Below are positions 1 to 41,860 of a stretch of 64,000 nucleotides of DNA, piece by piece (positions within the stretch are counted from its first letter, which is position 1; each line of letters starts with the position of its first letter). This stretch comes from Fistulifera solaris (taxonomy: Eukaryota): assembly GCA_030295235.1 (NCBI GenBank), contig AP026131.1:124001-188000 (forward strand), read 5' to 3'. Under the pieces are notes generated by a model, which was not told where the DNA came from, did not search any database, and saw only the letters and a program-made list of their open reading frames with translations. Both the position numbers and the translations under genes were made by a program.

Positions 1-96
1 TGCAAAACTAATCAATTAGCGAGCAATTCTTTTGGATCATTCCTTTCGTCCTTCCCTCATAAGTCGTCGCATTTGCGGATCTGTTGTTGAATTGTC

Positions 97-2001
97 ATGT
101 CGGAAAGTATTTCACCGAAACAAGCACCAACGTGCGTAAAGGCAAAACCCGCGACTCCTCGACCTTTTCCTTCGCTTCGTGATCACATGGATCTTCCGAA
201 AGATGCGACGAGTCCGTATGCTGCTTCGTCACGAAGAACAGGTCAATATAGCGACTACGACAGCTCACCCGAATCGGACGAAGACGACGTGACACCTGCG
301 GCTATCGATTTGGATGAAGATGTGCGACTTGCGGTTGCCCTTCAACAAGAAGAATTTTTGGCGCAAGAACGCATGTTTCACAAGGCCAGTAAGGACGAGA
401 CGTCATTTCACTGCAATATGGATGAACTCCTGGCTCTCAGTCTGGAAAATGCAGATGATGACGACAATGAGGAGACCTGGATAGCCAAATTTGCTTCTAT
501 ATCCGAGACGAAATATGTATCAGACGATGAAGACGACGAGGATGACGAGAAGCGACAGGCCCAAATTGATGCGGATGCTGCTCTTGCCAAGGCAATGGCG
601 GAAACCTTTGAGCCTTTAGATGAAGAAACTCGCAAATTGGTTGAAGAGTTCGAAAAGGAGGCCATGTTTTTGACAATATCGGGAAGAGCTACGCTCTTTG
701 TTCAAGCCGTGCTTGACCTTGTAACCAAGACAGAAGCGACCTTGCCAACTAATATGCAGGCGAAGATTCGTGCGGTCAACAGGGATGACATGGTTTATTT
801 TGCTGAGCGCCTTTTGAAAGCTCAAGAGGATTTAGAGGAGCAAGGTAGAGACACGAGCGTTGACGTTGGGTATCATTATACCAAGAGTGAAGAATGCATG
901 ACGCGAATTCGTGTTGATGGGTTAATGACATTTGCCGAACGCAATGCAGCCGGCATTCCTCGTGTGTTCAACGGTGCTGCGTTTGGAGACGGAATTTACA
1001 CCGCTAATAACCCCACTTCCTATTCCGGATACGGTCCTATTGGTCTTTTAGTTGCAAGGTTGAAAGGAACCACGACAACAACCACGGGAACGCCCGCTGA
1101 TCAAGCTGACAGTGTCATTGGACATCCAGGTCGTGTTGACGAGATTATTGTTCTTCGAAATTCTAGGAATTGTCTGCCGTTGATTGAGTACGAGACGGCC
1201 CTCGCAAGTAGCCACAAGGCCCTCTTGGAAAACCTGCAAGGGGATCTACAGGCACTCATTTCGAAATACATACTCGTAGTGCCGAAGGTTAGTTTAGACC
1301 AATTACCTGCCAAGACATCGTTTCCTTCAGTCAAGATCGTGGCATTCAATCTACCGGACAATATGACTTACACGGCTCCGTCCATGCTAAACACCGACCC
1401 AATTTCGGCCACATCTCCTGCTGGCAGCTCGACTGATGAATGCCCCATTTGTCTAGCCACCCTTTCGCAATCCGTCGTTTCTTGAAACTACTGCGGCCAT
1501 AAGTTTCACCGCGAGTGCCTATTACAAAGCGCCAGAGCAGGCCAACGGTCGTGTGCCTATTGCAGAAAGCTGTTTCAAGAGCCACAAGGATTGTGCCCAT
1601 CGGGAACCCTGACTGTGTCGTATTCGAGCTCGCAAACATGCAGCGGTTTCCCGGCAGGAGTTATTACATTGGATTACAACATCCCCAACGGAGTTCAACA
1701 ATCGTATCATCCGTCGCCGGGTGTTGCGTTTTCTGGAGCTAAACGACAAGCATTTCTACCAGATAATCGCGAAGGTCGAGAGTTACTGAAACGACTCAAG
1801 TATGCCTTTACCAGAGGCCTTACATTTACTGTCGGTACGAGTTTGTCGAGCGGTGCGTCGAACACTGTAACCTGGGCCAGTATTCATCACAAGACTGCTC
1901 TATCGGGTGGCACACATGGCTTTCCAGACAATTCTTACTTTTACAATTGTCACCATGAGCTCGATAACTTGGGCGTTCCTGCTGCAGATGCATTTCAGTA
2001 A
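97..2001 (+). CDS. Deltex-type E3 ubiquitin ligase (RING-H2 + DTC) fused to an N-terminal PARP-like ADP-ribosyltransferase domain; one in-frame TGA at 1483-1485
   Basis: ORFs 97..1485 and 1591..2001 share a frame. Reading through the TGA gives CPIC..SVVS*NYCGHKFHREC..CAYC (complete RING-H2). DTC motifs follow: ITLDYNIPNGVQ, HPSPG, AFLPDNREG, TFTVGTS, IHHKT, HGFPD. ART-like motifs: GYHYT, FGDGIYTA, DEIIVL. Confidence 0.85.
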
Positions 2002-2125
2002 CGATGGTGGAGAAGAATCACTTGCATGTTCAGAGATAAATTGATTTAACAAATTTTAAAGAGTTTCTTTATGATCGATGTTGAATGATCCGTATCAATC
2101 AACGCGATAAATTAGCATATCGTTT

Positions 2126-2800
2126 TTACGACATTCCGAGGCTCTTGAGACTGGGTGCTTCATCTGGTACATTGACACAGTACTGGTCCTCTGAGCGCAA
2201 ACAAGTCGTAATTGCCTCCACAGCGTTTGTAATAGCCAGATCAATTCCATTGTCACGAACATAGAATGTGTTTCCAAATTTCGCCTGAAGTCGGGTCCAG
2301 AAGACGTTCGGTAGATTGAGTTTGACTCCACCACCAACATTGAAATTCAAAACGTTTCCTTTGCCTCCAAATTGATCGACTACAAGAACAATGTACTTGT
2401 CGTCCTTCTGTCCTTCTTTACCAAGATCCCAGTAATCGCGAATCGCCAATCCAGGAGTGTTGGGGTACGCTTGACACAGAACACGAACACGAAAGCCCGT
2501 GTCGCGCTCCAGCGCTTTGAGTAGATCATTCATCCGACGGGCTTGTCCGGCCGTCAGAAACTTTTCCGTCTGAATGACATTCAAACCAGCTTCTGTCGGA
2601 AGCAAATCCGGACGATTGACTGCTTCTAAACGAGCATAGGCGGGAGATGCCAGTGTTGTTGCCCCTGTCACAACAGCAGCGCCACCACTGATCCAGGAGG
2701 CAATCACCGTTCGTCGCGATGTATTGGGTGCTACAGAAAACGCCGATGCCGATGCGGCGAAGCACAAGAATGCACAGATGACAGTGCAACGAGAGGGCAT
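2126..2800 (-). CDS. Thylakoid-lumen TPM-domain protein (resembles thylakoid lumenal 15.0 kDa protein 2), plastid-targeted
   Basis: Signal peptide ending ASASA|F, twin-Arg SRR plus hydrophobic stretch and AYA cleavage site. Conserved core RPDLLP..ERDTGFRVRVLCQAYPNTPGLAIRDYW..LNFNVG..FWTRLQAKFGN. Confidence 0.85.
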   Translation of the reverse strand: MPSRCTVICAFLCFAASASAFSVAPNTSRRTVIASWISGGAAVVTGATTLASPAYARLEAVNRPDLLPTEAGLNVIQTEKFLTAGQARRMNDLLKALERDTGFRVRVLCQAYPNTPGLAIRDYWDLGKEGQKDDKYIVLVVDQFGGKGNVLNFNVGGGVKLNLPNVFWTRLQAKFGNTFYVRDNGIDLAITNAVEAITTCLRSEDQYCVNVPDEAPSLKSLGMS

Positions 2801-3014
2801 ATTATATTATTGTGTTTTTCTCCGAGTTGACTACTATTTAGCAACTAATAGCATTTGTAATGAAGGCAATAAGGTATAGTCATCGTCTGCCGATTACCGA
2901 TTATTATTGCGCTGACACAGTTCTGGCGTTTTGTTTCAGCGTGACATCATCTCGGATTTTCATGTCGTCTCCACAAAGGTGTCACCGACGTCAGAAATTT
3001 TGTAAGTGTATTTA

Positions 3015-3290
3015 TTTACGTATCCACAAAATCTGGGAGTGTGTTGTTTTCACGTATCCACAAAATCTGGGCTTGTCCTTTTCACGTTTCCATAAAATCT
3101 GGGATTGTCTTGTTTCACGTACCAGGTACAAGCAACCACAAAATCTGGGGTGCGATCTTTCACGTCCCCAGAAAATATGGGCGTGTGGTGTTATCACGTT
3201 TCCAGAAAATATGGGAGTGTCTTGTTTTCACGTCGCCAGAAAACATGGGAATGTGCTGTTTTCACGTTCCAGAAATTATGGAGATGTGCC
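3015..3290 (+). repeat. Minisatellite, about 8 units of 32-35 bp, consensus TTTCACGT-NN-CCA(C/G)AAAAT(C/A)TGGG-N9-10
   Basis: Read directly, e.g. tttcacgtatccacaaaatctggg, tttcacgtttccataaaatctggg, tttcacgtccccagaaaatatggg, tttcacgtcgccagaaaacatggg. One unit carries an insertion near 3121-3134. Confidence 0.95.
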
Positions 3291-3480
3291 GTAAACCTTA
3301 GTCTTTTATGGGCTCCGTTGGGTCTTTTTCTGCTTTCTGCTTCTTAGCATTTTGTTAAAGTCTATTCAAACAAGTAACAATAGGTTCTAAGCAACAACCA
3401 TACCTTGATTATTACGTCGCAGACACGTCGTTGAACAAAAGAAGAAACTGTAAAATAGGAATAAAGGGAACACGGTGATC

Positions 3481-38445: not shown

Positions 38446-41445
38446 CTATAACACAGGAAGGTTCGTTCTGCAGATAGGGCATTCCATTTTCACATCCATC
38501 CATTGCACAAGACATTCGCGATGAAACAGATGATTGCAAGGAGCCAACATATACTCGGATCGTTTTTGAATATCAATCCCTTCGTAACAGATACTACACT
38601 CCAAGCCATGCACCTGAATGGCATTCGAAACTGCTGTTGATCCTACCAAAGGGCTGCCATTCAAACCAGTTGTGTGCTGTTCTGTTGTCATTCCCTCTGC
38701 TCGTGATATAGCGCGATTTCCTCGCATACGATTCCGAGTGGTCATGGCTGTCTTGTGTCTTCCGCTCGGCGAATCGCTGGATAAAGATTGCTCTATGGAA
38801 AATTGAGGCGCTGCATCACGGTCTTCCATCGCTTCAGTAGCTGGTACATGCGGATCCAGAGCACCAGGCGGTAACATGGAAGCGGGGATGGGTCGACTGT
38901 AGTCGAATTTTGGCGGAAGACATCTCGCTGGTATCATAAATCGGGCACCATACTTGCGTTGTCCGTACAGAACTGCTGTCTGGAGACCGACCCAAAGCAC
39001 CAACAGATAACAGGTAAAAGTATCATGCGGGGCCTCTGGATACACTTCTTTCAAAAAGTTGCTTTGTAAAGCATAATAATACAGAGGAGCGAAAATACGC
39101 GTTACGCTCATACCCAAAATGTAGGAATTGTGCAACGGAGTCTTGGCCTCCGTATAGATATTCAAGATGATCTGGGGAATCCAGAATGAGAACAATGCCA
39201 AGATATACAAAGCTCGATACTTGTCATTGACGTAGAAGAAAAGCACAAAAGTTCCGGCCAAGACAGTATAAAACCTCAAGTGAAGTAATGCAATTTGCCG
39301 TCTCAAAACATCCACTGGTTGACCACCGTTTGAACTATTTCGCGCCTGAATGATAATTGCCATGTACTTCATTTGAATAACACAAAAGATTAAAAGCTTG
39401 AAGAAAGCAACACTGGCAAATGCAGAAAATAGAGGCTGAATGGACAAGCTCATGTAAATATGCATTATGCACAGGAGTGCGTCCAGCAGTGTCTGCCACC
39501 CGACACAGAGGATCGAGACGCGTGTTGCTGCAGAAACGCCCTGAGAGTGAAGAACTTGCCTCAACAAAACCAGCATTTGTGTTAAACATATCAGCATCAT
39601 CACAAACGAGTAGTTGATCGCTTTGCTTGTCGCGGCTTCCCAATCTGTTCGGAGAGCCGTTGCGTTTAGTGTTGCATTAAAGTTACAATTCCGCGAATGA
39701 ATAGTGCCCACGAGTGTCATAACAACAGCCTGGTCTTGAATCGGTTTACCCCAAGATCCACGTAGATGCATTGGAGTATCCGCTGTATCAAAATTGTCTT
39801 CCGTATCGTCCTTCTGCAGTGGGTTCAACCGTTTGGTATCCATTACTTTTCGACTGACGAGCTGTCTCCACGCCCCTACAGTCCAATCCACCGTTCCGAC
39901 ATCAAGGCTGATTTCAAAGCCACATCCTGCTGCATTTAGTTCCAAGTCTTTTTCTCGCGCCGGCATTTCTCTGGCAGCAGGCGTCTTCACACGTCGTATC
40001 GTTTCTTTAGCGTCATCGCGAACGAATGGGTACGGCAATACAGCGTCGGACCAGTCGGACGTTGCCTGGAGGTGGCGATCTTGGTTGCTTGTGCGCAAAG
40101 CATTATTCAGCTGTTGCAAGGAGAGTTCGTCGGCCAAAGGTTTTAACTCTAGTGCATGTTCCTGTATAGATTTGACGCTTTGATCTGCAAAATCGTTGGC
40201 GGAGACCAAACTCCAGTCAACGGCCGCCTTTCCTACCGACTCAGAGAAGAGGACGTGAGCGTCCTCACGAATCACATTGATGTCGGCATTGTCGAGATTC
40301 GCCAGTGTTTCTTCCAGTCGACGCTTCGCGGCTTCTCGTTCGTCTCCCGGCACATACATGACAGACTGTGACACTTCTGTCGATGATACGAGCGAGAGAC
40401 GACCGATCGAATGTATCAACACACCCCGCACGCGAAGCAAAATATCTTTTCTCGTAGAATACCCAATACTGTTTGAATCGTAAATTTTGATGAACCCATC
40501 CACCAAGCTGAGTTCTTTCATGGCCGGAACAGATCGCGAGAAGAATTGAAAGACTGCACGCCCCGAATCTTGTGTCAATGGTATCGCCACGGGAAGGTCA
40601 CTGGATGGGGGTGCCACGTTGGAATCTGACCGGACGATCGCATTGTGTCCGTCGGTTCTCAAATCTTCCCATCGCATTGATGTCAAATTGTTATCATCTC
40701 TCATTCTTACGTCCAAACCGTAAGGAAGAAGAAAGACACCTAATCGATCACCGTGCAGCATGGCTATTTTCTCCATACGTTCTTCCAATGATTTCGCGTC
40801 GTAAGCAACAGTAGCCACGGGTTGTGATGTCGAATCTTGACTATGTTCCGTGACGTGATGCTGTTCACCCCACTCCGAGGACTGATTGAAGGGCAAGCGC
40901 ATCCACTGTCCCCGATAAAAGCCAGTAGCATTCCACGGATAATGGAAGACTTTCCGAGCGTCATCAGGATCACTATCAGAACCCGGCTGAAAACGACTGG
41001 ATCTCTTGGCACTTTCCGGAAACTGATCCTTCTCCTGTTCGGCTCGTTGTTCGGCCCAATGGTAGACACTGCTTTCCATATCCTCTTTTCCGTTCATCTC
41101 TACTAATGCCGCATACCGTTTGTGACCTTTGACGTAGGACCGAATGCGCTGTTCTTGAATTTGTCTAGATTGAAAGACGTTTTCTTCTAATTTCTGCATT
41201 TTACTCCATTCTTTTTGCGATCGTTTGTGCATAGCATTCTTTCGTTGCTGTCCTTCTTCTCCGTCCATGAGAAGCAACATCACCAAAAACATCATAAATA
41301 GACGTATTGTACGCTGCCTTCGTTCACGTTCTCTCCAAATTGCTGTGACGCTTTCGTCATTTATGGTATTATTGTTGTTGTTCGTCAAATCGAACTCAAA
41401 GACTTCGAGATCGTCCGGTTGCGGTGGGTCGTCCCCAATTTGCAT
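38446..41445 (-). CDS. TUL1/Dsc1/FLY-like multi-pass transmembrane RING-H2 E3 ligase
   Basis: Intact ~1000-aa ORF: luminal domain, TM block (KAINYS..AFFKLLIFCVIQMKY..FWIPQI..YGARFMIP), and C-terminal CSIC..APCNHLFHRECLVQWMDVKMECPICR. Confidence 0.88.
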   Translation of the reverse strand: MQIGDDPPQPDDLEVFEFDLTNNNNNTINDESVTAIWRERERRQRTIRLFMMFLVMLLLMDGEEGQQRKNAMHKRSQKEWSKMQKLEENVFQSRQIQEQRIRSYVKGHKRYAALVEMNGKEDMESSVYHWAEQRAEQEKDQFPESAKRSSRFQPGSDSDPDDARKVFHYPWNATGFYRGQWMRLPFNQSSEWGEQHHVTEHSQDSTSQPVATVAYDAKSLEERMEKIAMLHGDRLGVFLLPYGLDVRMRDDNNLTSMRWEDLRTDGHNAIVRSDSNVAPPSSDLPVAIPLTQDSGRAVFQFFSRSVPAMKELSLVDGFIKIYDSNSIGYSTRKDILLRVRGVLIHSIGRLSLVSSTEVSQSVMYVPGDEREAAKRRLEETLANLDNADINVIREDAHVLFSESVGKAAVDWSLVSANDFADQSVKSIQEHALELKPLADELSLQQLNNALRTSNQDRHLQATSDWSDAVLPYPFVRDDAKETIRRVKTPAAREMPAREKDLELNAAGCGFEISLDVGTVDWTVGAWRQLVSRKVMDTKRLNPLQKDDTEDNFDTADTPMHLRGSWGKPIQDQAVVMTLVGTIHSRNCNFNATLNATALRTDWEAATSKAINYSFVMMLICLTQMLVLLRQVLHSQGVSAATRVSILCVGWQTLLDALLCIMHIYMSLSIQPLFSAFASVAFFKLLIFCVIQMKYMAIIIQARNSSNGGQPVDVLRRQIALLHLRFYTVLAGTFVLFFYVNDKYRALYILALFSFWIPQIILNIYTEAKTPLHNSYILGMSVTRIFAPLYYYALQSNFLKEVYPEAPHDTFTCYLLVLWVGLQTAVLYGQRKYGARFMIPARCLPPKFDYSRPIPASMLPPGALDPHVPATEAMEDRDAAPQFSIEQSLSSDSPSGRHKTAMTTRNRMRGNRAISRAEGMTTEQHTTGLNGSPLVGSTAVSNAIQVHGLECSICYEGIDIQKRSEYMLAPCNHLFHRECLVQWMDVKMECPICRTNLPVL

Positions 41446-41860
41446 CGTGAATGTTTGTCGTATTCGTTTGTACAAAATTGAAAGTGAGACGTGAAGTCCG
41501 TCCTGAAAGCCTGAAAGGTTATTTTACTTGATTTGCTGGAATACCAATGATAGTTAACAAAATAGAACGTAAATCAATGATAATTGTTAAATGCTGTATG
41601 CTGTTCGTTCTTTCGTTTTTGACGATGTTGGTGCGTCAAAATGGCGATATGGCCGTTCGGTGTCCCGTTTTCATTGTGTAAGCAGTGCAAATGAAATGAA
41701 CCGGTACTCGATACCTATATTGAAACACGAGCTGAATGTCGTTCTGTGGTTTGTAATTTATCAGTCCATCCTAGCCATAGGCCATATCATAGCTATTATT
41801 ATTTTACAGTACCGAGAACATCTAGAAAAAACATTACGTAATAGCGTCTTCTTTATCTAT

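Follow-up and report, generated by a model that had tools for sequence, protein, structure and literature searches.

A diatom gene joining PARP-like and Deltex-type modules, interrupted by an in-frame stop in Fistulifera solaris

Does the gene at positions 97-2001 (+) of the window, that is, of the whole 64-kb stretch of Fistulifera solaris DNA analysed here, encode a single protein able both to write ADP-ribose and to attach ubiquitin to it? An earlier note on this DNA had read it as one polypeptide joining MIU/UIM-like ubiquitin-binding helices, a PARP-like ADP-ribosyltransferase (ART) domain and a Deltex RING-DTC ligase. Every motif listed there was recovered where it had been placed, in frame 1 of the + strand (Table 1), and since close orthologues conserve all of it, the motif set is far beyond chance. 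The claim of one continuous polypeptide fails for the window copy, where an in-frame TGA at 1483-1485 had been overlooked, and holds in intact relatives. The likely answer, weighed as a whole, is that a diatom Deltex-family gene is present here as one of its homeologous copies. The ancestral protein would have been a single chain of ~634 aa carrying three MIU-like helices, a divergent PARP-fold domain that has the H-Y-E residues (His, Tyr and Glu), then a RING-H2 and a DTC domain. The window copy would be truncated, yielding at most a ligase-less protein of MIU-like helices and PARP-like domain, with the DTC half not made.

A stop codon inside the RING

The TGA falls within the RING (...CPICLATLSQSVVS*NYCGHKFHREC..., the asterisk marking the stop). 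An exact database look-up identified the 432-aa product of 187-1482 as an annotated public protein, and residues 5' of its start, ATG 187, are kept in orthologues. Logan contigs of four runs were aligned to window positions 1-2600. Contigs of runs X1, X3 and X4 (three samples, one study, one organism) cross 1483-1485 with 0 differences; X1 is possibly the assembly's own source, so its support is not fully independent, and run X2, from another study, resembles a 98%-identical relative. The X3 and X4 contigs leave 871-1048 and 2002-2600 uncovered, and nothing was drawn from those gaps. No joint that would mark an intron was seen inside 97-2001 in the contig alignments of the four runs. Contigs of X3 and X4 that stop at window position 39 run on into 20-23 A's, which suggests that they are cDNA. 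The same position suggests that an upstream + strand gene has its poly(A) site there, 58 bases 5' of ATG 97.

In relatives the codon is a sense codon. Residue 463 is Leu in all five close orthologues and in P0253, an intact protein of 634 aa, and across 54 family members it is Leu in 49, Ile in 2 and Val in 2. A search of window positions 1-2600 for a selenocysteine insertion sequence (SECIS) or any other Rfam family at E<=1 found none. Because three runs and the public annotation carry the TGA, relatives have Leu and no SECIS was found, we conclude that the TGA of the window copy is best read as a recent nonsense mutation (Leu463 to TGA), with TTA to TGA as the simplest guess at the codon change. 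The polypeptide ends inside the RING; without readthrough of the stop, the window copy is therefore not a self-contained enzyme. The writer-ligase fusion proposed earlier thus stands in part: its modules are fused in intact relatives, whereas the copy in the window stops before the ligase is complete. As a practical caution, this copy is broken, and an intact orthologue is preferable for experiments.

To place the window copy among its closest relatives, we compared it with P0253, which shares 623 of its 634 residues (98%) with the window protein. The differences comprise 8 in the 462 residues upstream of the stop, 2 in the 171 downstream and the stop itself. When they were assigned to lineages against outgroups (alignment A1), about four changes fell on the window side (N118, N124, stop 463 and Y616) and about six on the P0253 side; protein change seems fast in both lineages. 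A metagenome scan for DNA of P0253 found none. The same runs hold a second copy that is ~9% divergent (X1 record 3, 46 differences over 328-816). Its changes, for example 623 A>G (Glu176Gly), agree with P0004, a Fistulifera solaris protein named "deltex"; the organism therefore has a homeolog with Leu at residue 463. P0004 is annotated at 583 aa and ends in ...HGFPDNA, ~21 residues short of other orthologues, and therefore has no equivalent of the catalytic Glu E621 of the DTC domain; this short end may be a gene-model artefact or may mark a second damaged copy.

Putative ubiquitin-binding motifs, PARP-like domain and ligase

The N-terminal MIU/UIM-like helices claimed earlier were confirmed as sequence motifs. 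The pattern [DE]xxLAxx[LMI] corresponds to the MIU core (acidic-x-x-L-A-x-x-hydrophobic) and matches the window protein three times, at aa 75, 109 and 160. In 199 family proteins there are 143 matches where shuffling predicts 11.9, and 141 of the 143 precede the PARP-like domain. Across six orthologues the motifs are constant while the acidic linkers between them vary. In a full-length model of P0253 (predicted local distance difference test, pLDDT, 78.5; predicted template modelling score, pTM, 0.46) all three motifs are helical, with low to middling confidence. We infer that these helices could bind ubiquitin; ubiquitin itself is not encoded in the window.

The middle domain was then characterized by structure prediction. 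For aa 175-445, AlphaFold2 with an alignment of 45 sequences gave a model with a mean pLDDT of 87.0 and a pTM of 0.80, whose strand order is that of the ART fold: His ends the first strand, Tyr lies in the GIYT strand and Glu stands before the IIVL strand. Foldseek against the PDB gave 225 matches at E<=1e-3; among the matches listed, all were PARP-family catalytic or pseudo-PARP domains, with Tankyrase 2, PARP3 and PARP1 tied at the top (E 3.7e-5). VIA-align, a method independent of Foldseek, was run over 48,161 representative chains, and all 16 chains at Z>=8 were PARP-family. PARP10 led (Z 11.6, root-mean-square deviation 3.6, 144 residues aligned), followed by PARP13 (11.5), PARP15 (11.3) and tankyrase 2 (11.0); below a gap came PARP16 (7.4), exotoxin A (5.3), DarT1 (5.2) and diphtheria toxin (5.0-5.1). 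Profile comparison by hhalign with seven proteins carrying precomputed PF00644, one of them named Thalassiosira profunda, gave a probability of 77.5% and E 1.9e-5 over 86 columns, and the first ESM Atlas match was a PARP cluster (score 0.93). The PF00644 gathering score was not reached: 13 of the 45 relatives gave matches below it (best E 1.8e-4), and none was seen in 95 further proteins at E<=1e-5. Profile A3 searched against PDB sequences returned DarT1 as its sole match (E 0.0065, 27 residues, around the YHYT...GLL motif). The ART fold that the earlier note had proposed was borne out by the predicted structure, which supports a PARP-type domain whose triad positions are occupied by His, Tyr and Glu.

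To see how far the triad is conserved, we used two sets of relatives. In the 45 relatives of alignment A2, picked from the match list and not by motif, His260, Thr262, Gly297, Gly299 and Tyr301 are invariant, and residue 261 is Tyr in 38, Trp in 5, Phe in 1 and Asn in 1. In 195 domain stretches, a set selected with a pattern that already fixes H, T, G, G and Y, the triad Glu occupies position 349 in 52; another 84 have it at 350 alone, and 59 have it in neither place. As judged from these alignments, the family is H-Y-E in ~70% and H-Y-other in the remainder, and the window's clade has its Glu at the canonical spot. A spread of this kind resembles that among animal mono-ART PARPs. The expected H-Y-E conservation was therefore found in full for His and Tyr (45 of 45) and in part for Glu (136 of 195). 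By its sequence, the domain may catalyse NAD+-dependent ADP-ribosyl transfer.

The ligase half proved to be what had been claimed, a RING-H2 and a DTC domain with intact IHHKT, HGFPD and EL motifs (Pfam PF18102, E 1.4e-40). All eight zinc ligands are encoded, but an uninterrupted RING on one chain with the DTC domain is absent from the window and present in orthologues P0002 and P0253; in the intact P0002, Pfam recognises zf-RING_2 at E 1.8e-8. RING ligands are kept in 52-53 of 54 relatives. The DTC domain begins ~8 residues past the last RING ligand, which is the Deltex arrangement. Its closest solved relatives in a PDB sequence search were DTX2 (6y22, E 2.9e-32), DTX1 (E 2.8e-30) and DTX3L. 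Aligned to 6y22, with a chain offset chosen so that His582, His594 and Glu608 fall correctly, R550, W593, H597, H607 and E621 correspond to R535, W578, H582, H594 and E608 of DTX2, and Ser568 of DTX2, a main-chain ADP-ribose contact, is replaced by Leu583. In DTX2, ADP-ribose is bound by W578, H594, H582, R535 and S567/S568 (PMC7442474), and His582-Glu608 is the catalytic pair that activates the 3' hydroxyl (PMC7615817). Across 54 relatives the Trp is kept in all 54, the equivalent of H582 is His in 46 and Pro in 8, and the equivalent of E608 is Glu in 47.

Table 1. Coordinates of the reading frames, domains, motifs and supporting contigs of the locus in the window.
Feature	Position	Strand	Details
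First open frame	97..1485	+	462 aa from ATG 97, closed by in-frame TGA
Publicly annotated product	187-1482	+	432 aa from ATG 187, ends at TGA
MIU-like helix 1	319..354	+	DVRLAVALQQEE, aa 75-86; invariant in 6/6 orthologues; model helix 73-94
MIU-like helix 2	421..447	+	DELLALSLE, aa 109-117; invariant in 6/6; model helix 108-120, low pLDDT
MIU-like helix 3	568..603	+	DADAALAKAMAE, aa 158-169; mostly invariant; pattern match at aa 160; model helix 148-170
Helical lead-in and PARP-like ART-fold domain	622..1275	+	aa 176-393; no Pfam model
His260 codon	874..876	+	H-Y-T, aligned by hhalign to H of HGT
Tyr301 codon	997..999	+	GDGIYTA, aligned by hhalign to Y of GEYFA
Glu349 codon	1141..1143	+	before strand IIVL, aligned by hhalign to the residue before VIVV
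RING-H2	1441..1563	+	C449, C452, C466, H468, H471, C474, C486, C489; interrupted by TGA
In-frame TGA	1483-1485	+	residue 463, between RING zinc ligands 2 and 3
Second open frame, same phase	1486-2001	+	rest of RING and DTC, 171 aa, without Met
DTC domain	1588..1977	+	aa 498-627, Pfam PF18102, E 1.4e-40; IHHKT, HGFPD, EL intact
Catalytic-pair codons	H597 nt 1885-1887; E621 nt 1957-1959	+	equivalents of DTX2 His582-Glu608
Terminal stop TAA	1999-2001	+	closes second open frame
Contigs over TGA	X1 record 6: 1170-2234; X3 record 24: 1401-1936; X4 record 29: 1217-1551		

A diatom family with more than one design

The gene has many relatives. Searched with phmmer against 1.84 billion cluster representatives, the middle domain gave 588 matches at E<=1e-3 and 415 at E<=1e-10. 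Source-named matches down to rank P0079 are all diatom (Fistulifera, Mayamaea, Chaetoceros, Skeletonema and Thalassiosira), and Epithemia (P0103), lower in the match list, also bears the domain. A profile search for longer proteins gave 8 matches; animal DTX proteins matched the window protein over the RING-DTC part only. Pfam at E<=1e-5, applied to 95 of 140 newly returned proteins, found DTC in 33, RING only in 7, TAZ in 2, Nup98 GLEBS in 2, PF00644 in 0 and nothing in 53; many of the 95 are fragments from short contigs, and a missing DTC is no proof of stand-alone forms. On the strength of these matches, the combination of MIU-like helices, PARP-like domain, RING-H2 and DTC appears as a large, widespread diatom family and not as a singular gene, and the search for the same domain order in other diatoms, suggested earlier, found it. 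In P0138, P0139, P0255, P0186 and P0198, further modules (TAZ, ankyrin repeats or Nup98 GLEBS-like repeats) flank the PARP-like domain and the RING or separate the two.

A second diatom design carries TAZ, RING and DTC followed by a PF00644-type PARP, in Thalassiosira profunda and five relatives. Pfam-recognisable PARP domains are present in P0079 and P0258-P0263, some of them after TAZ-RING-DTC, and one protein joins PARP to an E2 domain (UQ_con). These PARP domains are at odds with a 2010 survey (Citarelli et al., PMC2964712), which states that diatoms lack PARPs.

Within the 64-kb window no second family copy was found. The 1025-aa frame at 38449-41523 (-), which encodes a DUF2921 transmembrane E3 domain (E 3.7e-63) and, C-terminally, a RING, was considered as such a copy and rejected, having only the RING in common. 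The product of the convergent neighbour at 2126-2800 (-) is 224 aa long; its N-terminus is hydrophobic, and Pfam recognises a TPM domain in it (PF04536, E 4.5e-9). Beyond it, an intergenic tandem array occupies 3018-3289, in which units of 32-34 bases recur ~3-4 times each with 80-84% matches, under a higher-order period of 112 bases; it accounts for the repetitive overlapping open reading frames at 2860-3350.

Alternative readings, proposed mechanism and known systems

Several results weigh against the account given above, beginning with the PARP-like domain. No Pfam model, PF00644 included, matched aa 1-462 at E<=1. The H-G-[ST] motif of PARPs is not there, Tyr replacing Gly in the H-Y-T of the window protein. 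Glu is gone from 59 of the 195 relatives, so that part or even all of the family may be non-catalytic. The domain could then be a pseudo-enzyme that, like PARP9, PARP13 and TASOR, serves as a reader or scaffold; it would bind a partner, NAD+ or ADP-ribose and target the RING-DTC while another enzyme writes. The structural scores are compatible with this, as pseudo-PARPs score like active PARPs (TASOR Z 10.2, PARP13 Z 11.5). However, known pseudo-PARPs have lost His/Tyr triad residues, whereas His, Tyr and the G-x-G-I-Y-T motif are invariant in all 45 relatives here; Glu is kept in 136 of 195, at the canonical position in the window's clade; and DarT1, an ADP-ribosyltransferase by its PDB title, likewise has a residue other than Gly (F-H-F-T). 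We consider a pseudo-enzyme rather unlikely, though a serious contender. DarT1 also suggests another reading, in which a DarT-like domain ADP-ribosylates nucleic acids and the ligase adds ubiquitin to the modified DNA or RNA. DarT1 is the only sequence-profile match in the PDB (E 0.0065), and PMC10810221 reports that DTX3L ubiquitylates ADP-ribosylated nucleic acids. That match spans 27 residues only, and the structural comparison groups the domain with eukaryotic PARPs (Z 9.4-11.6), DarT1 lying far lower at Z 5.2. Kinship with DarT was set aside after this comparison, and we hold this last reading to be highly improbable.

The stop itself calls for the same care. The stop-bearing runs all come from one study, and a mutation confined to the strain or culture is not separable from a fixed one; the downstream frame is near-unchanged, with 2 differences from P0253 in 171 residues, which means that the break is recent or that the stop is tolerated. 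Together with the Leu at 463 in close orthologues and P0253, these observations speak for a gene that is intact in the living organism; the TGA would then be an error, or a mutation restricted to the culture that was sequenced. Yet the TGA is present with 0 differences in three separately assembled runs from three samples, and the public annotation ends the protein at it; on balance we think an intact gene improbable. An open and conserved frame after the stop could also mean that readthrough, or decoding of the TGA as selenocysteine, still yields the full-length protein; the contigs spanning both halves may be cDNA, which fits. However, no SECIS matched within 1-2600 at E<=1, relatives have Leu at this position and not Cys or Sec, and the base after the TGA is A, which is not a readthrough-favouring context. 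Decoding of the TGA seems to us very hard to credit. We therefore keep to a truncated window copy of a gene whose intact relatives carry all modules.

In those intact relatives, the PARP-like domain would mono-ADP-ribosylate a target or itself from NAD+. The ADP-ribose would then be held in the DTC pocket (W593, H607 and R550), where His597-Glu621 would activate its 3' hydroxyl, and the RING would deliver E2~ubiquitin, so that either the ADP-ribose or the substrate bearing it receives ubiquitin, while the MIU helices hold ubiquitin. Both enzyme activities, ADP-ribosyl transfer and ubiquitin ligation, are what we infer from the modules, and the same applies to the biological role. Literature searches on deltex with diatom or PARP found no paper describing the fusion, in agreement with the earlier statement that none was known to characterise it; the review by Aravind et al. 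2015 lay outside their coverage and may mention protist PARP-Deltex fusions. It is possible, and we offer it tentatively, that these proteins are undescribed single-chain diatom enzymes in which a cryptic active PARP-type mono-ART writes ADP-ribose and the attached RING-DTC ubiquitylates it in cis, giving hybrid marks with ubiquitin feedback through the MIU helices.

If this is true, the window copy would be a natural separation-of-function allele, a writer only. The size of the family, the fast protein change between near-identical strains and the rise of Deltex-family E3 genes in four diatoms during sexual reproduction (PMC12618581) would then suggest that these proteins act in defence or in signalling linked to DNA damage or meiosis; the antiviral or stress role suggested earlier may also be envisaged. 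The domain escapes Pfam, and its presence revises the view that diatoms lack PARP-type enzymes. In animals the link between ADP-ribosylation and Deltex proteins rests on separate proteins (DTX3L with PARP9 and PARP14), and what is written, on what and by whom is still debated. A natural single chain of PARP-like domain and RING-DTC across diatoms is independent evolutionary evidence that both activities belong together, and the fusion offers a compact means of producing the ADP-ribose-ubiquitin mark and examining it.

One of the nearest known parallels is DTX3L-PARP9 of vertebrates (with PARP14 as writer), likewise a RING-DTC ligase working with a PARP-family protein, and the DTC pocket and the His-Glu pair are conserved between the two. 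In the diatom protein, by contrast, the modules are on one chain, with N-terminal MIU-like helices and without macrodomains or KH-like repeats. PARP9 has lost its triad, whereas the diatom PARP-like domain keeps H-Y-E. DTX1, DTX2 and DTX4 (WWE-RING-DTC) have the same RING-H2 directly followed by DTC, but in the diatom family their poly(ADP-ribose)-reading WWE domains are replaced by MIU-like helices and the PARP-like domain. The mono-ART domains of PARP10, PARP15 and PARP13 are the best structural matches, with 139-148 residues aligned; the diatom domain differs in its low identity to them (14-19%), in falling below the Pfam threshold, in its H-Y-T and in being fused to an E3. PARP10 carries ubiquitin-interaction motifs of its own (PMC2964712). 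RNF168 is a RING ligase with MIU ubiquitin-binding helices (PMC2699339) and shares RING and MIU-type helices, putative in the diatom protein, but is without DTC and ART domains. Finally, the TAZ-RING-DTC-PARP proteins of the P0079 type from Thalassiosira profunda are a second diatom fusion of DTC and PARP: in them Pfam recognises the PARP (PF00644, E 4e-8), which is C-terminal to the DTC domain, whereas in the window-type protein it is cryptic and N-terminal to the RING.

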